A stretch of 64,000 bases of DNA from Candidatus Aenigmatarchaeota archaeon (GTDB lineage: Archaea; Aenigmatarchaeota; Aenigmatarchaeia; Aenigmatarchaeales; Aenigmatarchaeaceae), in the NCBI GenBank assembly GCA_043802485.1, contig JAZDKZ010000006.1, positions 2,670 to 66,669 of the forward strand. The letters run 5' to 3'. A program made the position numbers and the translations under genes. Position 1 is the first letter of the stretch. The number at the start of each line of letters is the position of its first letter. The notes under the pieces are model-generated. The model searched no databases, had not been told where the DNA came from, and worked only from the letters and a program-made list of their open reading frames with translations. This document shows positions 1,133-50,328 of this stretch, one piece after another.

Positions 1133-1163
1133 TACCGGCAGAGGTAGAAGGTAGGGTCTGAGC
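1133..1163 (+). other. 5' strand of the pre-23S BHB processing stem (partner 4298-4328)
   Basis: TACCGGCAGAGGTA-GAAG-GTA-GGGTCTGAGC pairs with GCTCAGACCC-CTTC-AAT-TACCTCTGCCGGTA: a 4-bp helix flanked by two 3-nt bulges. Confidence 0.9.
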
Positions 1164-4100
1164 ATATTCAAACCACCAGGAGGATAGCTCAGCTCTCGAG
1201 AACGACGAAGATCCTAGCAAGTTGGGATAAGCCTGGGGTAGGCGCAAGCGGCCTTTGAACCCAGGATTGTTGAATGCGACATCGCACCAGTTTCGACTGG
1301 TAGCCCGAAAGGGCGGTGAACCCGCTGAATTGAAGCATCTAAGTAAGCGGAGGAAGAGAAAACAATTGTGATTCCGTGATTAACGGCGAGCGAAAACGGA
1401 ACAGAGCAAACCGAATTGCCGCAGAAATGCGGTTAAGATGTGGTACCCGGTACAACTTAACTGGTTGACTCGAAGTCGCCTGGAAAGGCGCGCCATAGAC
1501 TGTGATAGCCAGGTAGAGGAAGACCAGAAAGCTGATTCGGGAAAAGACTACCATTCCTCGGATATGGAGTGGGAAGACGGCTGGCATCAACGGCTAACTC
1601 TAAACATCTCGAGAGTCTGATAGCGGATAAGTAAGGCAACTGAAAGCTGAAAAGTATTCTTAACAGAAGGTGAAAAGATCTTGAAACCTGTTGGTGATAG
1701 TTATCCATGGCCTGAAAGGTGCTCTTGCGAAGGAAGACTGAGTGATCAGTGTATACGAGCAGGAGCTTACAGGGTTGTGGAGTCCGTTTCGAAACACGGG
1801 ACGGGGAGTTTGTTTCTGTGGCGAGCATAACTGCTTACGGCAGGCATGCGTAGCGAAAGCGAAATGTGCGTAGCGCAAGTCTGGCACTGGGTCTGAAAGG
1901 GCCTGCAGTCACAGCGACAAGACCAGAAAGCACTTGATCTAACCCCAATCAGGATGAAGCGTAGCGAAAGCTGCGTGGAGGTCCGAACTAGTACTGAGCT
2001 GCAAATCGTTTAGATGAATTGGGGTTAGGGGTGAAAAGCCAAACGAACGTGCTGATAGCTGGTTCCTTCCAAAATGTGCCTTAGTACAGCTCTGTCTGAG
2101 ATAGTTAGTAGGGTAAAGCACTGATTGGGGAGTCAAGGGAAGAAATTCCCAGCTTCCCTGTCAAACTAATAATCTATTAACGTCTGAGAAGACAGGAGTG
2201 AGAATACCGGGGTAAGCTCGGTATTCGAAAAGGGAACAACCTTGCCTGAGGTTAAGGTCCCCAATGCTTGACTAATTCATAAAGTTTGTTTCGATCCCAA
2301 GACAGGAGGGGCGTAGGCTCAGAAGTAGCCATCGCATAATCAACGTGTAATAACGGACCTCTCTAGGATCGGAGCGGCGAAAATGGACGGGAGTAAGTCA
2401 AGAACCGATACCTCAGATTGCGAAAGCAATAGTGTAGGAAGGCATTCTGCTTGGATAGAAGCATCTGCTTGAGCAGGTGTGGACCGGGCAGAATAGAAAA
2501 TCCCGCCGGTAGTAGCAGCAAAGAAAGGTTAGAATCCTTTCCGCCTTAAGGATAAGGTTTTCACGACAACATTTATTGGTCGTGATTTAGTCAGTCCTAA
2601 CCCAACCCTTAACTGACGTTGGGGAAGGAAAATCTGTTAATAATCAGATACCACAGACATACGTGCGGCAACGCTAGCCTGATTGTAGACATTTTGGGAT
2701 ATGCTGACGCAAGTTAAGTAGTGAAGACCGGGAAGTTCAGTCATTGAGAGAACCGGTTGAAGCTGCGAATAGCTCTGCTGTATAGCGGAGTTCAGCAAAT
2801 TTCCAGAGTCCGTGAAAATACAATTGGGAAGGATTGTTTGTGACTGTACTGAGAACCGATACAGGTATCCTTGCTGAGAAGGCAATGGCGTGTCGAGATA
2901 TGCCAGTCTAGGGAAATCGGCAAAATAGAGTCGTATGTTTGCTATAGGACTTGCCTATGCAGAGATGCATAGGTCGCAGTGACAAGGAGGAAGCGACTGT
3001 TTAATAAAAACATAGCTGACTGCTAAGGAGAAATCCTTTGTATAGTCAGTGAGGCCTGCCCAGTGCGAGTGTGTTAAAGTTGGTTTCAACCGACCTAAGC
3101 CCTCGTTAACGGCGGCGGTAACTCTGACCGTCTTAAGGTAGCGTAGTCCCTTGTCGATTAAATGTCGACCTGCATGAAGGGCTTAACGACTTCCTCACTG
3201 TCCCAGACTGGAGCTCGGCGAAGCTACTATTGTGGTGAGTAGGCCACAGACCCTCAGGGGGAAGAGAAGACCCCGTGGATCTTTGCGGTAGCCTGTTGTT
3301 GTTATATGGCTACAATTGCATAGTGTAGGCAGTAGTCGCCATGCTATTGGTTTTGGCCAATAGATAGACGCCGATGTAACACTGCCCTTTTGTAAACATA
3401 TGACTAACCCCATTGTGGGGACACCGATTGGTGGACCGCTTGGCTGGGGCGGTACACTCTTGAAAAGGTATCAAGAGTGCCCAAAGCAATCCTCATCTCC
3501 GTCAGAAATGGAGAGTAGAGTGTAAGCACAAATGGATTGTTTATTGGATTCAACACAGTAATGAATCCAATTGTGAAAGCATGGGCTAACGATCTGCCGA
3601 GCGTTATTGATGAATATCGGTTGTTTCAGAAAAGTTACCCCGGGGATAATGGAGTCGTGGCGGGTGAGAGCTCACATCGACCCCGCGCGTTGCTCCATCG
3701 CTGTCGGCTTCCCCTCTCCTGGCCGTGCAGTAGCGGCCAAGGGTACAGGTGTTCACTGGTTAAAAGGGGACATTAGCTGGGTTTAGTACGTCGTGATCTG
3801 ATATGGGTTTAACTCTTCTCTTTGGTAATTAGCATGATTAGCTTTAGCAATAGCGCTAGCGATGACTTCATGTGACCACGTCTGGAATGGGCGATGATTG
3901 CACCGCCCCATTTAGAATATCTATATGATAATTCGGGTGTAACTTATGAGTCCAATTTTAATCGGTGGTATGTCTGGCCCTTGGGCCTATTGCATGCCAT
4001 CGGTATCTATGTCAGACGATAAAGACAGTACGGTCTCTAACTACTGAGGGTGTTGTTACCTGACTCTAAGGAAGAATGAGTACGAAAGGAACGTTCTTCC

Positions 4101-4307
4101 GCGGCCTCTAGTTAACCAGTTATCGAAAGGTAACGCTGGGTAGCCACGCCGTAACATTTAACAGCTGAAAGCATCTAAGCTGGAAATTGCGGGGAAAAAT
4201 AGGTAACTGGCACAGATAGACTATCTGTTTGATGGGGCAGGGATGTAAGCACGAAGCTTCGGCGACGTGTTCAGTTCACTGCTCCCAACAGCCTTTAGCT
4301 CAGACCC
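1154..4307 (+). rRNA. rrl: 23S rRNA (archaeal, unlinked from 16S and 5S; intron at 3796-4022)
   Basis: Universal LSU motifs (GAATTGAAGCATCTAAGTA, TAAGGTAGCG, CTGGGGCGGTAC, GGGGATAA, AGTACGAAAGGAAC sarcin-ricin loop, GCTGAAAGCATCTAAG); termini approximated from the processing stem. Confidence 0.97.
3796..4022 (+). other. 227-nt BHB-type rRNA intron between E. coli-equivalent G2597 and A2598
   Basis: GTCG-TG|A-TCTGATAT...ATGTCAGA-CGAT-AA|A; removal restores GTCGTGAGACAG of helix 93. Confidence 0.9.
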
Positions 4308-5538: not shown

Positions 5539-5808
5539 GTGGGCTGGGTAGACAACTGCCCCTGAAAAGGGAGGAATTTCCATCCACCATCAACCTACGG
5601 GTTTGCCGTCCTTCGGGATTAGGCCGAAAGGTTTAGGTAGTCCAATAGGGCCACATGTTCGATTTGGATAATACCGGCAAGGTGCAAGACCAGACAGCTC
5701 TGATGACGAAAGAGGAGCGGGTAGGTCGCATAGACGAATGTTGTCGCAATACAGGGGTGAACGCGCCTGCAGGACCTGTTTACAGAAGATGGGATATGCC
5801 CAGCACAC
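5539..5808 (+). ncRNA. rnpB: RNase P RNA (compact archaeal type)
   Basis: P1 GGGCTGGGTA/TGCCCAGCAC; CR-I GAGGAATTTCCATC pairing with CR-V ACAGAAGATGG; GGTGCAAGACC; K-turn-like CTGATGA. Confidence 0.88.
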
Positions 5809-8673: not shown

Positions 8674-9282
8674 ATGATTGACTTCAAGCTCTGGAAGGAC
8701 GCCCTGCTAAAGCCGAAGCAAACCTTCAAGAAACAGAAGCCCAAGGCAGACCTGGGCGTTGCCATGAAGAATGTTGCAATCGCCGGGCTGATAACAGGCA
8801 TCATTATGGGCCTGGTCGAGTTGAACCTTCTGAGCTTTGCTTTCAACATAGTTTTCTATCCCATAGTCATGGTTGTCTCGCTTCTGCTAAACTCCCTTCT
8901 GTATCATGTTTTTGCCCGCCTTCTGGGAGGCAAGGGAAACTATAACACGCAGACCTATCTGATAGCTCTTTACAGCGCACCCATGTCTATCATGAGTTCG
9001 ATAGTATCTATTCCCCTTTTGTCCATGACAGAAGAAAATCTCTTTAACAACTTGCCTGTGTTGGTTCTAGTCGTAATTGCAAGCATGGTAGTTGGCATCT
9101 ATTCGCTTTACCTTCTGATTCAGAGCCTGAAGGAGACCCATTCTATAAGCACTGGCAGGGCTTTCCTGACAGCCATCGTCCCGGCGCTGTTGTTAATGTT
9201 GTTGATAATAGCAGGCGTCTTGGTCTACTACGGTCTTTTCATGCCTGCGGCATACGAGATAGCGCTGCCTTCTACTGTTTAA
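8674..9282 (+). CDS. Yip1-family membrane protein
   Basis: N-terminal LLKPKQTF, ARLLGGKG motif, about 5 transmembrane helices. Confidence 0.8.
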   Translation: MIDFKLWKDALLKPKQTFKKQKPKADLGVAMKNVAIAGLITGIIMGLVELNLLSFAFNIVFYPIVMVVSLLLNSLLYHVFARLLGGKGNYNTQTYLIALYSAPMSIMSSIVSIPLLSMTEENLFNNLPVLVLVVIASMVVGIYSLYLLIQSLKETHSISTGRAFLTAIVPALLLMLLIIAGVLVYYGLFMPAAYEIALPSTV

Positions 9283-9322
9283 AATATATAAGCCGGACAG
9301 GCCAATTAATTAGTGATAAGCG

Positions 9323-9916
9323 ATGTGTTTCAAAACTCTAAAATCAATCCTGACAAACCCTGCTGAAGCTATCAGCAAGGCGAAAAAGTCAAAGAATGTT
9401 TCTGAGACATTATGGATACTTTTCCTGTCGTTTGTCATGATAGGAGCAGGGCTTTCCATAGTTTCCCTTGGTATGTTCACTGCCGTGGTGTCAGCAGCTG
9501 TCGGGATAACCATACTTTTGTTGGGTTCGCTGTTCAGCGCCTTTTTAGGCTACCTGCTTTCGATTGTGATGAACATTCTGGGAGGCAAAGGCAAGGTTAA
9601 AGACGGTCTTGCAGTAGTGTCGTACAGCATATTTCCGATATCGATTGCTGTTTTGGTGACTGCTCTGCTATCAATGATACATCCAACCATAGGTTTTTTG
9701 GGCTTTATTTTGATGGCAGTTCAGACAGCTTTAGGATTCTCAATCTACTTTAGAGCAGTCAAAGAATTGTTCAAGACGGACATGGTAAGGGTCCTGATAG
9801 GCTTTTTGATAATGATTTACGTCATCATGATATCCGCTTACCTTACGCTTGCCATATCGTCTAGCACTGTCCTGCCCTTCTTCAGCGAGATGATGATGCC
9901 TTTGGGTCTTGCCTGA
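9323..9916 (+). CDS. Yip1-family membrane protein (tandem paralog)
   Basis: ILTNPAEAI, ILGGKG motif, about 5 transmembrane helices. Confidence 0.8.
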   Translation: MCFKTLKSILTNPAEAISKAKKSKNVSETLWILFLSFVMIGAGLSIVSLGMFTAVVSAAVGITILLLGSLFSAFLGYLLSIVMNILGGKGKVKDGLAVVSYSIFPISIAVLVTALLSMIHPTIGFLGFILMAVQTALGFSIYFRAVKELFKTDMVRVLIGFLIMIYVIMISAYLTLAISSSTVLPFFSEMMMPLGLA

Positions 9917-10318
9917 TTAAATTTTTGAAATCTTCTATTACAAGGCCTTCTGCTATGTCAATGCTGTCCATCTCGTCGATACCGAAAAATTCCCATTTAC
10001 TGTGCTCTTTTGACAGTTTTATTTCGCCTTCTGTTCTGCATCTGAATATCAGTCTTATCAGAAAGGCTGCGCCTACTTCAGGGAAATCCACTGTAGAAGT
10101 CAAGTAGCCCACGAGACTGGATGAAATCATGTCTAGGTATGTCTCCTCCTTCACTCCCTTTTCAGGGCTTCCAGAGGCTCCTCGCCGTATTCAATCTTGC
10201 CCTCTGTGAATTGCCATCTTTTCTTGTTCGTCCTGTTGACCTCGCTCCTTTTGAGCATGAGGAACTTGTTGTCTTTCTCTATTATGGCAGTCACTATTGG
10301 TATGACTCTTTTTTCCAT
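9882..10318 (-). pseudogene. NUDIX hydrolase, frameshifted within the Nudix box
   Basis: MEKRVIPIVTAII...GKIEYGEEPLEALKRE then TGA; continues VKEET in another frame (one G missing near 10154). Confidence 0.75.
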
Positions 10319-10426: not shown

Positions 10427-10900
10427 ATGGCAGAGAAAAGGGTGCTGTTCGTTCCGCATTGCATTCTCAATCCTGATGTCAACGACAATTCAAAATCCAC
10501 AAACGAGATTGTAAGGATGATTACCGAGTCGGGCGTTGGCATAGTGCAGCTGCCCTGTCCTATGATAGAGTACAACAGGAAGCTAGTTAGAGAGACCCGC
10601 AAGTCCAAGAGATACGGCGAATACTGCAGGCAGCTCTCGATAAAGATACTGAGCGACATAAAGAAATATCTGGACGCTGACTACAAGGTTCTCGGTGTCA
10701 TGGGCATAGAGTTCTCTGTCTCTTGCGGCGTGCACCACACCAGAAAGAGCAACAGAAAGGTTCTTGGAAAGGGCTTGCTCATTGACGAGCTTGAGAAGGG
10801 AATGCAGCAGAGGAACTTTCAGGTTCCCATCCTGTCGGCAAACTTTGAGAACGTCTTTTCAACGCTGAAGAAAATAGACTTGCTGATTAAAAACAATTGA
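10427..10900 (+). CDS. TudS/DUF523-related putative Fe-S protein
   Basis: HCILN, QLPCP, G.EFSVSCGV Cys triad; paralog at 24787-25293. Confidence 0.7.
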   Translation: MAEKRVLFVPHCILNPDVNDNSKSTNEIVRMITESGVGIVQLPCPMIEYNRKLVRETRKSKRYGEYCRQLSIKILSDIKKYLDADYKVLGVMGIEFSVSCGVHHTRKSNRKVLGKGLLIDELEKGMQQRNFQVPILSANFENVFSTLKKIDLLIKNN

Positions 10901-10909
10901 GGTGATGTT

Positions 10910-11113
10910 ATGAGTGAATATGTGATGAAGGATTCGGTAGGATATTCGCAAAAGGCGTACATGGCGCCGACCGTGTCCTACTTTGGTGGCAACCTTGAGG
11001 CAGGAGAAAACACTGTCTCAGCCCTTGCCAAGACAGCGGCTGCTGTTGCCCTAGCCCTCGTGGCTCTGGCAGCAACTGCGGCAAGAGGTTCGGAGAGCCC
11101 GCTAGAGGAGTGA
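10910..11113 (+). CDS. Putative RiPP precursor peptide
   Basis: GAGGTGA ribosome-binding site; YMAPTVSYFG leader motif; Ala-rich core; directly upstream of radical SAM and PqqD genes. Confidence 0.75.
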   Translation: MSEYVMKDSVGYSQKAYMAPTVSYFGGNLEAGENTVSALAKTAAAVALALVALAATAARGSESPLEE

Positions 11114-11117
11114 TGGC

Positions 11118-12203
11118 TTGTTCGATTTCCAGCAGCTGGTTTCGGATCTTAGTGAGGAAAGACTGTTGCCGTCGGTTCCCTCAAAGCCTGACCGGGTGGG
11201 GCTGCTAAGGACCACTGACAGTTTTTTCAAGGATATGGAAAGCAGGCGGATATATCCCAAGGAGCTGGACAGCCCGCTGGGCTGCCAGCTGGAGCTGACG
11301 CACAGATGCAATTTGAAATGCAAGCAGTGCTACAACATGTCCGGCTGCTCCAAGCCGGACATTTCAATCAAGAGGTGGATGGATGTTGCCAAGCAGCTGG
11401 TGGACATGAACATGTTCGAGTGCGTTATATCTGGGGGCGAGCCGCTGCTCCTCGGGGACAAGCTGTACGAACTGATGGATGTCCTGCATGACAGCGGAAT
11501 GAGGTTCGTGCTCGTCACCAACGGGATGCTTATGGATGAAAAGGTCATTGACAAGCTGAGCAAGTACGACTACTACTGGGTCCAGGTGAGCATTGACGGC
11601 TCAAAGCCCCAGATACATGATAGTATAAGGGGTGTGAAGGGAAGCTGGAAAAAGGCTGTCAATGCAGCAAAGCTGGTGTCCCAGTCAGGGATGCCTTTGG
11701 TCATTTCCCATGTGTTACAGAGGGAGAATGTAGACCATATCGATGAGATGATTGAGACGTCGTATGTTCTTGGCGCTAGGAGGCTGATAACAGGCAAGTT
11801 CACGTTTTCCGGCAGGGCGATAACCAACAAGGATGACATAGGAATCGACGAGAAGAAACTGAAAAAAGCCTTTAGTCTATTGAAGACCAGGCACGACCAA
11901 TACACGGGAAGCATGGAGATAGTCACTTCGACAGACCCTGCATTCTATCTCAGGTACAGGATACTCGAGCCTTGCAATGTTCTGTTGGTAAGGCCGAACG
12001 GAGACGTCAAGCTGGACTGCATACTACCCTTCAAGATAGGCAATGTGAAGAATGAGAGCATCTCCAGTATGTGGAACAAAGTTGGAAAGTCTGCCTGGAG
12101 AAACGAGCAGGTGATAAGGTACATAAGCTCGATAAAGGAGGAGAGTGATATGTTGAAGGTCCGACCAAGGCCTTACATAGACGAGGACATTCTGATAAGG
12201 TGA
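11118..12203 (+). CDS. Radical SAM peptide maturase-like enzyme with reduced SPASM/Twitch domain
   Basis: CNLKCKQC, SGGEPLL, TNG, VSIDG, HD.IRG motifs; C-terminal PC..LLVRPNGDV..C...IGNV. Confidence 0.9.
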   Translation: MFDFQQLVSDLSEERLLPSVPSKPDRVGLLRTTDSFFKDMESRRIYPKELDSPLGCQLELTHRCNLKCKQCYNMSGCSKPDISIKRWMDVAKQLVDMNMFECVISGGEPLLLGDKLYELMDVLHDSGMRFVLVTNGMLMDEKVIDKLSKYDYYWVQVSIDGSKPQIHDSIRGVKGSWKKAVNAAKLVSQSGMPLVISHVLQRENVDHIDEMIETSYVLGARRLITGKFTFSGRAITNKDDIGIDEKKLKKAFSLLKTRHDQYTGSMEIVTSTDPAFYLRYRILEPCNVLLVRPNGDVKLDCILPFKIGNVKNESISSMWNKVGKSAWRNEQVIRYISSIKEESDMLKVRPRPYIDEDILIR

Positions 12204-12496
12204 TAAAGATGGAAGACTATGTCATAGATGTCATGAGATCGGCTGTGCTAGAAAAGCCTAAAGTCCAGAAGGTGAGGAAGGATGGCGAATTCTTGGTTGT
12301 CAGGGACAACAACAAGAAAATAGTTATTCTTAACTCAACAGCAAGGGAAATATATGACATTTGCGATGGTCTGACTGTTGGCGAGCTCATAGAAAGAATG
12401 AAATCAGAGTACGACGTCGGCAGGAAGAAGCTTTCTGTTGACGTCCTGAACTTCCTCAGGGACATGGAGAAAAAGGGTCTGGTTGCTCTGAAATGA
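12200..12496 (+). CDS. PqqD-family RiPP recognition element
   Basis: LNSTAREIYDICDG.TV.E......EYDV....L..DV..FL..M...GLV pattern; overlaps the radical SAM stop codon. Confidence 0.88.
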   Translation: MIKMEDYVIDVMRSAVLEKPKVQKVRKDGEFLVVRDNNKKIVILNSTAREIYDICDGLTVGELIERMKSEYDVGRKKLSVDVLNFLRDMEKKGLVALK

Positions 12497-12540: not shown

Positions 12541-13152
12541 CTAAGAGTAGGACCCTGTTATTGTGCCAGCTGTGGTGAAGATGTTCGAAGATTCTGGCGG
12601 AATCGCATAGCTTATGACCACTGCGGCGCTGTATGCGTCTCCAACCGTTTTCGGTGTCCATCCAGATGCCGGCGTGCAGCCAACCATGAAAGACTTCCCT
12701 GGTTCGATTGTCCAAGCCGGATTACAGCTCACAGAAGTCGCGTCTACGGTATATTCTATGTTTTTTATCTCTAATATCTGGTCAATCCTGTTTTCCAAGT
12801 TCATTGTTATCTGCCCATTGCTTGCGTCAATGACCCACGGGTTTAGCACCTGTACCTCTTCGAACCCTACGGCTGTTTGTGCTGTTGGTCCCAAGAAGCT
12901 AGACGGCGAGTAAAATCCATAATACATCAGAACCATAGGCACTATGACTAACGAAGGCAGTATTGTTATCACGATACCAATGATTAGCAGGTTTCTGGCC
13001 ATCTTCCTGTTGTCTTCCTTGACAACCAGGTAGCCAACCAATCCGCCTATCAGGCCAAAGAAAAGAGGGACCAGGTACCATGCTCTGCTCGGCTTTTTCT
13101 TTTCTTTAGGAGTTTCAGTCGCGTCCTTTGAGTAATAATAATCATCTTTCAT
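12541..13152 (-). CDS. Membrane protein with a pilin-like C-terminal domain
   Basis: Extra N-terminal transmembrane segment, then SPSSFLGPTA..QVLNPW..TAGTITGSYS shared with the adjacent pilin. Confidence 0.7.
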   Translation of the reverse strand: MKDDYYYSKDATETPKEKKKPSRAWYLVPLFFGLIGGLVGYLVVKEDNRKMARNLLIIGIVITILPSLVIVPMVLMYYGFYSPSSFLGPTAQTAVGFEEVQVLNPWVIDASNGQITMNLENRIDQILEIKNIEYTVDATSVSCNPAWTIEPGKSFMVGCTPASGWTPKTVGDAYSAAVVISYAIPPESSNIFTTAGTITGSYS

Positions 13153-13253
13153 GAGAAAATAATCTATTTTTTGCTATAAATAAGCTATAGGAGCGCCTCT
13201 GCATGTGTTCAAAAATAAAAGAAAAAGAAATTAAATTAAAAAATCGGAAAAAA

Positions 13254-13736
13254 CTACGAGTAAGTTCCGGTTATGGTACCTGCTGTGCTAAAATCTACAG
13301 TTGATGCAGTTGAAGGATACCTGTAATTTATGACAAGTGTTGCGGTGTAAGCGTCTCCTGCTTCTGCAGTTGCTGGTATTACAGGTGCTATTGTACAACT
13401 AAATGTTGCGTCGTCACCTGAAGCAATGTACAAATCTCCTAAAACCGGAGTACATGTATATCCTGAGACATCATCTATAGTTGCACTAATCGTGGTTATG
13501 TTAACTGCCCCACCGACTCTGTTGGCTAGGTTTAAGGTCATCGTATCAACTGTTGCTGAAACTGCCCATGGGTTCAAGACTTGAATCTGACCGAATCCTC
13601 TTGCCGTTGGTCCCAAAAAGCTAGACGGTGAGAATATGCCATAGTACGCCAGAACACCAGCTACAATCAAAATTATCAAGATGGCCCATCCATATGTCAT
13701 TAGGTACTCTATTGCTGTTTGTCCTTTCATTTTCAT
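13254..13736 (-). CDS. Type IV pilin (probable major pilin)
   Basis: Class III signal peptide MKMKG|QTAIEYLMTYGWAIL. Confidence 0.88.
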   Translation of the reverse strand: MKMKGQTAIEYLMTYGWAILIILIVAGVLAYYGIFSPSSFLGPTARGFGQIQVLNPWAVSATVDTMTLNLANRVGGAVNITTISATIDDVSGYTCTPVLGDLYIASGDDATFSCTIAPVIPATAEAGDAYTATLVINYRYPSTASTVDFSTAGTITGTYS

Positions 13737-13785
13737 ACCTCCTATTTAGTTAATTTTATTTTGTTAACCCGATACTTAAACTTTA

Positions 13786-14811
13786 CTATATCTGGAAAAA
13801 ACTGCCGAAAAAGAACTGTATCATAAGGTGGGACAGGAAGAAGACTGCCAAGGCCCCCAGCATGAAGAGCGGTATGAACTTTACGCCGTTCTTCTCAGTT
13901 CCTGTCTGTATCAGGCCTGTTATCAAAGCCCCGAAGAACGTGGTTGTTGATATTGATGCTATGGCAAACCAGAAGAGCTGGTCAGGCGTTATCTGCGGCG
14001 CCCCTGCCTTGGCCAGAAGCCCGCCACCCATACCACCGCTAGACAGTTCTATGCCGCCCAGGATTTCAGGCGACCATAGAGTGGTCATGACCTCGATGAA
14101 GAACAGGCTGAGCGAATAGAGCATGGGCGCGCCCAGGACTGCTGCGAAAACTATGAATATCGAATAGGTTGTGACAGATGCCTTTATCTCCTTCTTCACT
14201 GACTGCGTAACCCTGATGTTGTTGGCTGTCTCCTCCAGTAAATTGGCCAGCTCGCCTCCAGACTCTATGCCCTCTATCAGCAATCTCACCGCCTTGTCCA
14301 GAATGTCTGACTTTATCTTTTCTCTTATCTCTAAAAGGGCCATTTTTATCGACTTGCCGCCTACAGTCTTTGCCCCGACCCTTCTTATCTCCTCCTCGAA
14401 TATGCCGAACTCTGGCCTTGCTGCAAGCCATATGGCCCTGTCGACTGTCATGCCTGCCCTTATGTTGGCTGACATGAGCTGCAAAGCATCAGGCAGGACC
14501 TTCTCCACTTCTGCTGCCCTAGAGTCTGCTATCAGTATGATCAGCACCTGGATGATCACCAGAGCGAGCGCCCCTGAGCCAAGCCCCAGCGCTATGCCGC
14601 TCAACCCCCAGCCTATCATGTAAAGGTCGAAGGCGATTACCACCCCTAGAAGCACTGAAAAGAAGAAGGTGAACCCTATGAACCTCTCTATTATCTTCTC
14701 GTTCACGCCAGCATACACAAGTTCCTTTTTCAGCTTCTGCTTGTACTTTATTGGTGTAAAGTAGAACAGCCTTTCCCTTATCCTGCCGACATTTATTTTT
14801 TTCAGCTTCAT
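13786..14811 (-). CDS. Type IV pilus platform protein (TadC/GspF family)
   Basis: LPDALQLMSANIRAG, EGIESGGEL motifs; multiple transmembrane helices. Confidence 0.88.
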   Translation of the reverse strand: MKLKKINVGRIRERLFYFTPIKYKQKLKKELVYAGVNEKIIERFIGFTFFFSVLLGVVIAFDLYMIGWGLSGIALGLGSGALALVIIQVLIILIADSRAAEVEKVLPDALQLMSANIRAGMTVDRAIWLAARPEFGIFEEEIRRVGAKTVGGKSIKMALLEIREKIKSDILDKAVRLLIEGIESGGELANLLEETANNIRVTQSVKKEIKASVTTYSIFIVFAAVLGAPMLYSLSLFFIEVMTTLWSPEILGGIELSSGGMGGGLLAKAGAPQITPDQLFWFAIASISTTTFFGALITGLIQTGTEKNGVKFIPLFMLGALAVFFLSHLMIQFFFGSFFQI

Positions 14812-15684
14812 CTATTTCACCATCATAGGCCTCTTGGTCTTTATCACGCCCATGTAAAAATACTGGAACACGGACAATACCACGATTATCATGGGGAATA
14901 TCATAAGCGGAATCTCCAGGCCGGAGAACGAAGTGAGTATTATCAGGAAGGTTGTGCCCAGCGTGGGCATTATCACGGCAACAAGCATGTACATAAGCGT
15001 GTAGGGCCCCAGCTCCTGCCCGTACTTTCTTATGCCTATCAGCTGCTCCTTTGTCAGGTTCTTGACGATTGATTGCAATGTCACGGCGACATCGCTTCCA
15101 GACTTCATGGAATTGGTGAGCTGCCATATGGCCCTTCTGAAATGTAGCGAGGGATTCCTCAGAGACGCCTTTTCAAAGGCCTTGATCATTGACAGGCCTG
15201 CGTTTATCTCCATGAGTATGGTCTTGAACTCCTGGCTTATCTCGCCGTATCCATCACTGACGCTAATTATTGAATTGAAAAGCGGGACGCCAGACTTTAT
15301 TTCTATGAGTATGTGGTCCAGGGAGTTCAAAAGGTCTGCCTCTAGCTTCTTCATCCTTCTGGCAGCCATCAGCTTTGGAAACCTAAGCAGGTAGTTGAAA
15401 ACAAATATGGAAAAAACAGAGCCTATCCCCAGAGGAAGAAGCAGCTCAGGCCTTCCTACTATAAGCCCTACCAGAAATATGAGGAGCGTCAAGACGCAGA
15501 AATAGAAGAAAGACGTCAAAGCGACTATGGACGCATAAACCTTGGGATGTATGTTGATCTCTGCCTGATAGAGGTCTAATTTCAATGATGGGTGGGACTT
15601 CCAGATGACATTGCCTGCCCTATCGAATATCTTTGCTTCTTTCATGGCCTTCCTTATAGGGAATGGCACGAATGGTATTATCAT
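14812..15684 (-). CDS. Type IV pilus platform protein (TadB/GspF family)
   Basis: IKSGVPL..YGEISQEF..SMKSGSDV motifs. Confidence 0.88.
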   Translation of the reverse strand: MIIPFVPFPIRKAMKEAKIFDRAGNVIWKSHPSLKLDLYQAEINIHPKVYASIVALTSFFYFCVLTLLIFLVGLIVGRPELLLPLGIGSVFSIFVFNYLLRFPKLMAARRMKKLEADLLNSLDHILIEIKSGVPLFNSIISVSDGYGEISQEFKTILMEINAGLSMIKAFEKASLRNPSLHFRRAIWQLTNSMKSGSDVAVTLQSIVKNLTKEQLIGIRKYGQELGPYTLMYMLVAVIMPTLGTTFLIILTSFSGLEIPLMIFPMIIVVLSVFQYFYMGVIKTKRPMMVK

Positions 15685-24786: not shown

Positions 24787-25293
24787 TTATGTGAATTTCA
24801 GCAAAGACTGTATCTTGTCTATCGAGCTGTAGACGTTGTTAAGGTTCACGCCTATCATGGGGACTTGGAAGTTCTTTTTCTGCATCTCAAGCTCCAGTTC
24901 TTCCATGAAAATGCCCTTTCCCGGGGTGCTCCTTCTGCCGTTTCTCACCTGATGGACGCCGCATGTTTTCGAGAACTCTACGCCTATAATGCCCAAGACC
25001 TTGTAGTCCTTTTTCATGTAGGTCTCTATCCTTTCCAATACTTGGGAAGACATCTTCTGGCAGTTCTGCTTAAAGCCGTTGTTTTCGTACGAACCCTTTG
25101 TGGCAGGTCTTCTATCCAAACCGTTGTTAAACTCCATCTGCGGGCATTCCAGCTGTACTATACCTACACCTGATTCTGCAAAAAGCTCCAAAAGATCTTT
25201 GACAGAACCGGCAAAACTAGCCTTGCCTACTGGCATTGTGTTCTGATTTAGAAGGCAGTGTGATACAAATACAATTTTCTTTCCCCGTTTCAT
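24787..25293 (-). CDS. TudS/DUF523-related putative Fe-S protein
   Basis: SHCLLNQN, QLECP, GVEFSKTCGV. Confidence 0.72.
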   Translation of the reverse strand: MKRGKKIVFVSHCLLNQNTMPVGKASFAGSVKDLLELFAESGVGIVQLECPQMEFNNGLDRRPATKGSYENNGFKQNCQKMSSQVLERIETYMKKDYKVLGIIGVEFSKTCGVHQVRNGRRSTPGKGIFMEELELEMQKKNFQVPMIGVNLNNVYSSIDKIQSLLKFT

Positions 25294-46156: not shown

Positions 46157-46286
46157 CCCCAGGTAGCTCAATGGCAGAGCGATCGGCTGTAGACGAGTAC
46201 TGTAGTGCTTGTCGCTTAGCAGTCGCTCGGCAATCACCGATTACATAAGTCGGTAAAGGTTGGGGGTTCAAATCCCTCCCTGGGGA
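46157..46286 (+). tRNA. tRNA-Tyr(GTA) with two introns (46193-46235 at 37/38; 46242-46256 at 43/44)
   Basis: CCCCAGG/CCTGGGG acceptor stem (C1-G72), ATCGG/CCGAT anticodon stem, GGTTCAAATCC; both inserts have BHB-like junctions. Confidence 0.88.
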
Positions 46287-48903: not shown

Positions 48904-49022
48904 TGGTTGCCGGCCAAAGAGTGTAGGCAAGATCCGTTCCCATCCCGAACACGGTAATGAATCTACACTTCGTTTTCGGTTGTACTATAGAAAATATGGG
49001 AAGCCGAGGGCGCTGGTTACCA
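48904..49022 (+). rRNA. rrf: 5S rRNA
   Basis: CCGTTCCCATCCCGAACACGG loop C motif; terminal helix TGGTTGCCGGC/GCTGGTTACCA; about 119 nt. Confidence 0.92.
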
Positions 49023-49404: not shown

Positions 49405-49665
49405 ATGTCGGTCACACTAAAATTGGACAAGGGGATGATAGAGAGACTTGTCGAGTGGACCGACATAGGACCTGACGATTCGAGGAACCTGACAGGCAAG
49501 GAGCTGACCCTGGAGCTGAATGACAGGGAGGTTCTGATAGAGCTGCACAAGAAGGACAGGACTATGGAAATATCTGACCTAAACGGCAGCTTTGGTATCT
49601 GGTTCAAGATCACGGACGAAAAGGTCGAGAAGTTTAAAAAGATAATTGAATTCATGGGCCCGTAA
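49405..49665 (+). CDS. Hypothetical protein
   Basis: ORF between two tRNAs; stop overlaps the first bases of tRNA-Lys. Confidence 0.6.
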   Translation: MSVTLKLDKGMIERLVEWTDIGPDDSRNLTGKELTLELNDREVLIELHKKDRTMEISDLNGSFGIWFKITDEKVEKFKKIIEFMGP

Positions 49666-49777
49666 CTCAGTCGGTAGAGTGCCAGGCTTTTATCTGTTAG
49701 ATAAAAGCATGTGTAACGCGAAAGCGTGATGACAGGAAGAAACCTGGAAGTCGTGGGTTCGAACCCCGCCGGGCCCA
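49656..49777 (+). tRNA. tRNA-Lys(TTT) with 49-nt intron (49693-49741, 37/38)
   Basis: GGGCCCG/CGGGCCC, CCAGG/CCTGG, BHB central helix CTTT/GAAG. Confidence 0.92.
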
Positions 49778-50216: not shown

Positions 50217-50328
50217 GTCGAGATAGCTCAGCCTGGTTAGAGCGCCGGTCTCATAAAATCATTATGAGATTTGACATCCAAGATGATATGGAATCCGGAG
50301 GTCGTGGGTTCAAATCCCATTCTCGACA
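50217..50328 (+). tRNA. tRNA(CAT), probably elongator Met, with 37-nt intron (best BHB at 38/39, 50257-50293)
   Basis: GTCGAGA/TCTCGAC acceptor stem, spliced CCGGT-CTCATAA-TCCGG, central helix TCAT/ATGG. Confidence 0.88.

Follow-up and report, generated by a model that had tools for sequence, protein, structure and literature searches.

What is made by four tightly packed genes in a DPANN archaeon, one of which encodes a radical S-adenosylmethionine (SAM) enzyme and another a peptide of 67 amino acids? The genes occupy positions 10427-12496, all on the + strand, of a 64,000-nucleotide stretch of contig JAZDKZ010000006.1 (assembly GCA_043802485.1, Candidatus Aenigmatarchaeota archaeon), here called the window. 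A first-pass annotation made from the sequence alone had proposed an archaeal operon of the kind that makes peptides that are ribosomally synthesized and are modified post-translationally (RiPPs), and the four open reading frames (ORFs) were found where it had placed them. In the best reading of the data, the genes at 10910-12496 are a module for leader-guided peptide maturation, from an uncharacterized family. The peptide is very probably the substrate of the radical SAM enzyme, delivered to it by a stand-alone PqqD-type RiPP recognition element (RRE). The features on which the argument turns are these:

10427..10900, + strand: TudS-related (DUF523-like) putative Fe-S protein of 157 amino acids; ATG start, stop 9 nt before the peptide gene
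10910..11113, + strand: precursor-like peptide of 67 amino acids; ATG start, from the ORF call
10958..10987, + strand: presumed recognition motif Y17-M-A-P20-T-V-S-Y-F-G26 in the peptide; Y17 and P20 are invariant, and binding would follow by analogy
10991..11086, + strand: predicted Ala/Leu/Val/Thr-rich helix of the peptide, residues 28-59; from a low-confidence AlphaFold2 model and hydropathy
11118..12203, + strand: radical SAM enzyme of 361 amino acids, SPASM/twitch lineage; TTG start, PF04055
11307..11330, + strand: CX3CX2C radical SAM cluster motif, C64/C68/C71; invariant in 115/115 family members
12018..12020, + strand: C301, candidate catalytic thiol of the radical SAM enzyme; the sole invariant Cys outside the radical SAM motif
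12200..12496, + strand: stand-alone PqqD-type RRE of 98 amino acids; GTG start, PF05402

The spacings between the four genes are 9 nt, 4 nt and then a 4-nt overlap of the radical SAM stop with the PqqD start. A sequence like a ribosome binding site, GGTGAT, lies 5 nt 5' of the peptide ATG. The sigma-70 promoter and terminator scan is not meaningful for an archaeon; it marked a single terminator-like site, which falls within the peptide gene and on its opposite strand.

Linkage of the genes was followed in 41 related DPANN genomes, including the source genome G000, and in loci from a pattern scan with one genome per species. The scan returned 567 confirmed relatives, of which the best 80 were kept (L013-L092). 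Loci L013-L057 carry the closer enzymes, L058-L092 more distant radical SAM enzymes and L006-L012 paralogous radical SAM enzymes of aenigmarchaea. Among the 41 genomes, the radical SAM enzyme, PqqD and the peptide occur together in five, namely the four members of genus g1 (G000-G003; L013 is from G001) and G017. Full-length orthologues of the enzyme, 71-82% identical, are present in four of the 40 other genomes (G001-G003 and G017), and all remaining matches are at most 32% identical. PqqD orthologues are found in exactly the five genomes with an orthologue of the enzyme; with these queries no orthologue of either was found in the other 36/41. The 45 closer loci include PqqD in 41, the peptide in 37, both in 36 and a CxxCxxCC protein in 26. 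The corresponding numbers for the 35 more distant loci are 14 for PqqD and 0 for the peptide and the CxxCxxCC protein, and neither PqqD nor the peptide occurs in the seven paralogous loci. Thus the peptide accompanies the enzyme in 37/45 closer loci versus 0/42 control loci, a comparison with some circularity in it, as members of the same loci went into the profiles. Peptide copy number varies: 8 of the 45 loci have none, 11 have one, 20 have two and 6 have three. The first-pass annotation had staked its proposal on homologous loci carrying a conserved peptide, and its unit of precursor, radical SAM enzyme and PqqD is borne out by the 5/41 genomes and 36/45 public loci that retain it. The core unit is these three genes, not four.

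The module is not specifically archaeal, as had first been supposed. A protein search gave 865 relatives among 2,690 scored candidates, and relatives of the enzyme with 38-50% identity carry the source names Bacillota, Alphaproteobacteria, Synergistales, Chloroflexota, Epulopiscium and Helarchaeota. Most of the loci found are bacterial, many from gut or rumen bacteria and some from termite bacteria. Patchy spread across phyla and within the Aenigmarchaeota fits an accessory, horizontally moving module, which is how we interpret it. Transposases flank two of the module loci. The module was also seen in a contig of the candidate phyla radiation (CPR; Moraniibacteriota) and in Thiomargarita (L020, L021); in L021 a gene for an SbmA/BacA-like transporter (PF05992, 9e-143) lies beside it.

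Is the small ORF a gene at all? Between it and the L003 orthologue there are 30 synonymous and 4 non-synonymous codon differences, and the counts over the three codon positions are 7/2/33. The L002 orthologue differs by 31 synonymous and 12 non-synonymous codons. To judge from these codon differences, the 67-amino-acid ORF is under purifying selection and is a genuine gene rather than an accident of frame. A profile made from 59 bacterial peptides only gave an independent test: among the 569 window ORFs of at least 30 amino acids, the peptide was its sole significant match (E 1e-4, next best 6.1). Orthologues lie directly upstream of the radical SAM gene in L002, L003, L013 (two tandem copies) and L014. 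The tandem precursor genes of L013 (997-1391) are diverged, and the second has the F-P motif typical of bacterial peptides.

The peptide belongs to a family that public resources do not name. It matched no Pfam or NCBIfam family, and an ESM Atlas search with it gave no usable match. NCBIfam searches with an alignment of 20 peptides at E<=10 returned nine unrelated single-member chance matches and no common family. A profile of the same 20 peptides retrieved 123 representatives at E<=1e-3 from 1.84 billion clustered proteins; 122/123 are 54-96 amino acids long, and 122/123 carry Y..P within their first 40 residues. In a collection of 5.8 billion sequences the profile matched 40 clusters, of which all those named by their source are 'hypothetical protein' and none has a Pfam domain. 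A wider set was picked from the 45 closer loci as small + strand ORFs with the loose motif [YWF]..P.hydrophobic and a composition filter. Seven of 72 candidates were removed by eye (L024_5896 may be a degenerate true member), leaving 65 peptides including that of the window.

These peptides share an architecture. A short and usually basic N-terminus carries the two invariant residues, a Tyr and a Pro (Y17 and P20 of the window peptide; 20/20 aligned peptides), and the second position after the Pro is usually a branched hydrophobic residue. Then comes a variable linker, 8-15 residues long, with Leu-Glu in archaeal and many Selenomonad peptides, and then a second Pro in 55/65. After the second Pro comes an Ala/Gly/Val-rich hydrophobic stretch with small-xxx-small spacing, ending in at least one basic residue. 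Tails are conserved within subgroups only, that of the archaeal group being R-G-S-E-x-P-L-E. In the window peptide the 19-residue Kyte-Doolittle maximum is 2.03, at residues 36-54, and AlphaFold2 modeled the peptide alone with low confidence (mean pLDDT 62.8) as a disordered N-terminus and a helix at 28-59. The modeled Ala/Leu/Val/Thr-rich helix could be hydrophobic enough to span a membrane. No K/R-G motif is present, which rules out a class III (pilin-type) signal.

The first-pass annotation had the peptide sequence exactly right: YMAPTVSYFG, then GG, an Ala/Leu/Val/Thr-rich stretch and the tail SESPLEE. Its reading of these parts fared unevenly. The motif had been likened to the YxxPxLxxxG of lasso-type leaders; Y-x-x-P stands, as the only invariant part of the family, and G26 is not conserved. 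The GG is no conserved trait either, as 3/6 archaeal peptides have it and 3/6 have D at position 26 and no GG, so GG was ruled out as a cleavage site. Nor is an aromatic-free core a trait of the family, F, W and Y being absent beyond the leader in 9/65 peptides only. Thioether chemistry had been called unlikely, and the family agrees: beyond the leader 53/65 peptides are free of Cys, the alignment has no conserved Cys column and the window peptide has no Cys at all. Cores without a conserved Cys argue against thioether chemistry.

The PqqD-type protein is the presumed means of delivery. It matches PF05402 at 3.2e-13 (50.2 bits, cut-off 23.4) and the lasso PqqD model only weakly, below cut-off (4.5e-6). 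A natural fusion of the radical SAM enzyme with PqqD exists (P0038, 517 amino acids). Binding of leader peptides is an established function of stand-alone PqqD proteins, and lasso leaders have YxxP as a characterized RRE recognition sequence (PMC12710340). Predicted complexes of PqqD with the peptide, using the 20-peptide alignment, scored 0.31 against a mark of 0.32, with all three controls at 0.00, a result that counts neither way.

What remains is the reaction. The radical SAM enzyme matches PF04055 (Radical_SAM) at 1e-24, and SPASM (PF13186) at 18.9 bits, below the 21.5 cut-off. Its best NCBIfam matches, PqqE (TIGR02109, 137.1 bits, 6.6e-40, cut-off 381.35) and MftC (TIGR03962, 115.1 bits, 3.9e-33, cut-off 265), are remote, and no NCBIfam equivalog came near its cut-off. 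In the ESM Atlas it met only unnamed 'radical SAM' or 'Fe-S oxidoreductase' clusters. AlphaFold2 modeled the enzyme with pLDDT 94.5 and a predicted TM-score (pTM) of 0.92. The nearest solved structures by fold are SkfB (Foldseek 5e-21, TM 0.65), SuiB, CteB, PqqE and anSME, and the nearest solved relatives by sequence are SkfB (2.4e-39) and PqqE (6c8v, 3.6e-31). The fold is still that of the SPASM/twitch lineage despite the lost cluster cysteines.

That loss is apparent in an alignment of 115 full-length members, taken from the 120 listed relatives after five outside 320-400 amino acids were dropped. Cys is 100% conserved only at C64, C68, C71 and C301. C102 is conserved in 82%, C56 in 39% and C286 in 28%, and no other C-terminal Cys exceeds 28%; 41/115 members have a single Cys after position 240. 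C286 and C301 are the two C-terminal cysteines that had been noticed at the outset. C301 lies in an invariant R-P-N-G-D-x-x-x-D-C hairpin and is at most one residue off, in the alignment, from a Cys of SkfB's C-terminal twitch-domain hairpin, a Cys that we take to be a ligand of the SkfB auxiliary cluster. Since only C301 is conserved outside the radical SAM motif, a conserved auxiliary cluster could not be ligated by cysteines. Judging from the alignment, such a cluster is unlikely in this family, although ligands other than Cys are possible.

These features suggest the following mechanism. PqqD would bind Y-x-x-P-x-V (residues around Y17-V22) and present the peptide to the radical SAM enzyme. 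The enzyme would keep its SAM-binding [4Fe-4S] site, the SPASM/twitch cluster cysteines having been lost and the cluster presumably with them, and would abstract a hydrogen atom somewhere in the peptide's Ala/Val/Leu/Gly-rich part. With no built-in electron acceptor, a redox-neutral reaction is most likely. Tentatively, and with considerable doubt, we propose that this reaction is C-alpha epimerization (L to D), in which Cys301 would give the hydrogen atom back, much as in PoyD and EpeE/YydG. Such a reaction would yield a short peptide that forms a helix and inserts into membranes. According to PMC8326336, homologues of PoyD share one strictly conserved Cys (PoyD Cys372), the proposed hydrogen atom donor, EpeE/YydG likewise uses a Cys, and radical SAM epimerases return the hydrogen atom from a protein Cys. 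By analogy C301 may be the counterpart of PoyD Cys372. Epimerization had already seemed plausible on first inspection, and the single invariant non-cluster Cys adds an argument for it.

Several observations weigh against epimerization, or against the module as drawn here. In sequence and fold the enzyme is closest to the cross-linking maturases SkfB and PqqE, with the E values given above. The epimerase YydG is only weakly similar (1.2e-8), over residues 55-151, the region of the core motif. The invariant Tyr and Pro could be the site of reaction instead of the site of recognition. The CxxCxxCC protein of 26/45 loci could supply a cluster in trans, which would re-open oxidative chemistry. Finally, the partial circularity of the locus counts lessens the weight of the linkage itself.

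The alternative that survives best retains the PqqD-delivered module and changes the chemistry. It holds that the helix or tail receives another modification, such as side-chain C-H functionalization or a backbone rearrangement, that C301 is a relic cluster ligand or another kind of catalytic residue, and that the bacterial CxxCxxCC protein replaces the cluster. The descent of the enzyme from SPASM/twitch cross-linkers, the position of C301 at that of the twitch/SPASM hairpin Cys and the conservation of tails within subgroups (LPSL, LEP and PKTLQ types) all speak for it. So does the CxxCxxCC protein, a Cys-rich, YkgJ-like protein of about 90 amino acids (PF03692 weak, 3.9e-4) whose gene adjoins that of the radical SAM enzyme in 26/45 loci and, in L016 (3687-3959), overlaps its start. 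This protein may replace the lost auxiliary cluster. A quick tree of the enzymes (50 rows, omitting the split genes of L054 and L057 and the duplicates L004 and L005) placed all 25 CxxCxxCC-linked enzymes within one bacterial clade of 37, with 99 in the Shimodaira-Hasegawa-like approximate likelihood ratio test (SH-aLRT). The five archaeal enzymes lie outside that clade and form one of their own (SH-aLRT 99), next to Ezakiella and three sequences on long branches. However, no PF03692 match was found in the window's genome, in an assembly that is 89% complete and with a search whose control was positive in 11/14 genomes, and no core residue is conserved family-wide to mark a side-chain target. 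A modification of this other kind is possible, and we regard it as rather doubtful.

Chemistry at Tyr17 is improbable. Here YxxP would be the reaction site, as in a chemistry like that of pyrroloquinoline quinone (PQQ) or mycofactocin, and the result would be a Tyr cross-link or a Tyr-derived product. PqqA also starts with aromatic-x-x-P. Tyr17 is the sole invariant reactive side chain of the peptide, the best NCBIfam matches of the enzyme are PqqE and the mycofactocin maturase, and the archaeal and many bacterial peptides share a Glu some 10 residues beyond P20. Those matches fall far under their cut-offs, however (137 vs 381 and 115 vs 265 bits), and PqqE and MftC need auxiliary clusters whose cysteines are missing here. 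There is no invariant partner residue for the Tyr, and hypervariable cores with one to three paralogous peptides per locus suit a natural product better than a cofactor.

Still harder to sustain, and decidedly improbable, is the explanation that the 67-amino-acid protein is an ordinary, unmodified small membrane protein, with the radical SAM enzyme and PqqD acting on another substrate, such as a pilin from the adjoining genes or a remotely encoded peptide. The peptide could span a membrane, this locus has no protease or exporter, and the other strand carries a type IV pilus-like cluster directly downstream. Against this, the peptide family tracks the enzyme across contexts and phyla, 37/45 versus 0/42 loci, in neighborhoods that are otherwise unconserved (91/141 neighbor genes scanned), and its invariant YxxP fits a known RRE recognition motif.

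The last alternative brings in the fourth gene. The 157-amino-acid protein matches NCBIfam TudS_rel_CD3072 at 5.5e-27 and 94.3 bits, below the cut-off of 130. TudS-related genes have relatives in 36/41 related genomes, with or without the module, and adjoin it only in genus g1, whose members have two TudS-related paralogues. Three genomes, G013, G019 and G020, have a 50%-identical paralogue and no module; G017 has the module and no TudS-related gene on that contig. Because it is present without the module and adjacent to it in one genus only, the TudS-related gene is probably a neighbor and not part of the core, with a small residual chance of a role. Its occurrence in module-free genomes and the G017 arrangement ruled it out as a core member. 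Of the four-gene operon first annotated, then, the tight spacing stands and the TudS-related gene drops out as a conserved member. It is highly improbable that the TudS-related [4Fe-4S] protein handles sulfur or electrons for the radical SAM enzyme, for example in C-H thiolation, because the 9-nt gap, the arrangement kept in G000-G003 and the distinctness of the module-side paralogue from the widespread one are set against adjacency in a single genus, closer paralogues in three genomes without a module and the finding of no TudS-like gene among the 91/141 scanned neighbors of bacterial loci. The second TudS/DUF523 paralogue of the window (24796-25281, - strand; PF04463 below cut-off) is 44% identical to the copy at 10427-10900 and is the version widespread in the order.

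Other neighbors of the module differ from locus to locus. The absence of a dedicated protease or exporter from the operon, pointed out in the first-pass annotation, holds for the window but not throughout the archaea: in 2/5 archaeal loci an alpha/beta hydrolase gene (S33/S9/S15-like) overlaps the PqqD stop by 4 nt (L002 2879-3622; L005/L014 about 2879-3190, open end). This coupled hydrolase is a candidate leader peptidase. It is absent from the window and was not found elsewhere in the G000 genome. Downstream of PqqD, L013 has a 124-amino-acid membrane protein without a family, and the window and L003 have nothing. No recurrent protease or exporter was found among the 91/141 scanned neighbor genes of peptide-bearing loci. 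The extras that do recur are DUF1232 (5 loci) and LRAT/NlpC-like proteins (3 Synergistales loci), with SbmA/BacA at 1 locus. In Ezakiella the locus also encodes a GntR regulator, an ABC-2 transporter and an Rce1-like protease, a combination that we take to be typical of bacteriocin immunity.

The surroundings in the window were also surveyed. The source genome is 0.77 Mb in seven contigs, and the sources of its closest protein matches give these the name Candidatus Aenigmarchaeota, which is a lineage of the DPANN. Runs containing this DNA are groundwater and biofilm metagenomes, with no RNA run among those listed. Directly downstream of the module, the type IV pilus-like cluster (12541-15684, - strand) encodes two pilin-like proteins that match no Pfam family, along with two membrane proteins resembling T2SS-F/TadC. 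The module has a pilin-like gene beside it in L002, L003 and L013 as well; in L013 it is also followed by both T2SS-F/TadC-like genes, and in L003 by a fragment of one of them. Upstream are two tandem Yip1-domain membrane proteins (8674-9916, + strand), and a Yip1 protein is upstream of the module in L013 too. Between these and the module, a NUDIX hydrolase gene (9882-10318, - strand) is broken into ORFs 10318..10151 and 10154..9882. The break is inside the Nudix box (...EALKRE / VKEETYL), where a G-rich run looks one base short, so this may be either a frameshifted gene or an assembly error. Three Rfam tRNA matches on the + strand (46157-46286, 49656-49777 and 50217-50328) have lengths of 112-130 nt where the model has 71 positions, and ARAGORN missed all of them; they are probably intron-containing archaeal tRNAs. 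Neither a 16S nor a 5S gene adjoins the 23S rRNA gene (1155-4306, +); the 5S gene (48906-49021, +) is 44 kb from the 23S gene, and the archaeal RNase P RNA (5539-5808, +) comes 1.2 kb after the 23S.

New radical SAM RiPP families are found regularly, and the combination of peptide, RRE and radical SAM enzyme is a well-known kind. This family is without a curated model for either the peptide or the enzyme. No description of it was found in the open full-text literature; subscription papers and the supplementary tables of radical SAM RiPP atlases may list it. What sets it apart is a SPASM/twitch enzyme that keeps one auxiliary-cluster Cys and a substrate whose only invariant residues are the leader Tyr and Pro, together with a core like a transmembrane helix, one to three paralogous peptides per locus and no conserved protease or exporter. 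The hosts include genomes of less than 1 Mb (DPANN and CPR), where accessory genes are few. The chemistry, once solved, would show what a SPASM-type enzyme does without clusters and could reveal a new class of membrane-active peptide in gut and rumen anaerobes. A broader proposal, which taken as a whole is unlikely, is that these loci encode a new ribosomal peptide class of DPANN, CPR and gut, rumen and termite anaerobes. In it a SPASM-lineage radical SAM enzyme that has shed its auxiliary clusters would use a single relic Cys to install D-residues or another cluster-independent modification in the Ala/Gly/Val helix, yielding a self-inserting peptide that needs no protease or exporter. If so, ultra-small episymbionts might use the peptide at contact with the host membrane, and this would be the first radical SAM-modified peptide system characterized in DPANN archaea.

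How does the module compare with known systems? It lacks defining marks of the PQQ, mycofactocin, sactipeptide and ranthipeptide, lasso peptide and proteusin systems. The PQQ core (PqqA/PqqD/PqqE) has the same three-part logic, in which a small peptide goes with a stand-alone PqqD and a SPASM-lineage radical SAM enzyme. PqqE is the best NCBIfam match of the enzyme and 6c8v ranks second among solved structures, but the score is 137 against a cut-off of 381 bits and the auxiliary cysteines are unconserved. The peptide here is three times longer than PqqA, with a hypervariable hydrophobic core and one to three paralogues per locus. It has no Tyr four residues after E31 or E34, as the Glu-x-x-x-Tyr of PqqA would require, and no PqqA model matched it. 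A search of the genome for PqqC was uninformative, the control genomes being silent as well. Mycofactocin (MftA/MftB/MftC) likewise has a peptide and an RRE protein along with its SPASM-lineage radical SAM enzyme, but the peptide here lacks the C-terminal Val-Tyr (it ends SPLEE), the auxiliary-cluster cysteines are missing and the score is 115 against 265 bits.

SkfB, the thioether synthase of sporulation killing factor, is the closest solved relative by both sequence and fold. SkfB binds an auxiliary [2Fe-2S] cluster. Its RRE is fused at the N-terminus and it links Cys to Met, whereas here the RRE is separate, the peptide has no Cys and the other auxiliary ligand cysteines are absent. Nor does the enzyme fall in the cluster-bearing SPASM/twitch subfamily, as SPASM is below cut-off and only C301 is conserved after position 240. 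Lasso systems share the invariant Y-x-x-P and a stand-alone PqqD, but the partner here is a radical SAM enzyme. The lasso Asn-synthase-like cyclase (PF00733) was not found in G000, an 89% complete genome, with the control positive in 11/14 genomes, and no lasso B2 protease is in the locus. The peptide had no match to any NHLP or Nif11 leader family (proteusin type) in Pfam or NCBIfam. The resemblance of the epimerases PoyD and EpeE/YydG to the module would be one of working principle: PoyD homologues have a single strictly conserved extra Cys, and the substrates are aliphatic and membrane-active (PMC8326336). Their redox-neutral reaction fits an enzyme without an auxiliary cluster. By its CX3CX2C enzyme, adjacent PqqD and conserved precursor gene, the module fits the general RRE-dependent radical SAM RiPP-like kind, and by analogy with its better known members the RRE would bind the leader and the enzyme would modify the core.

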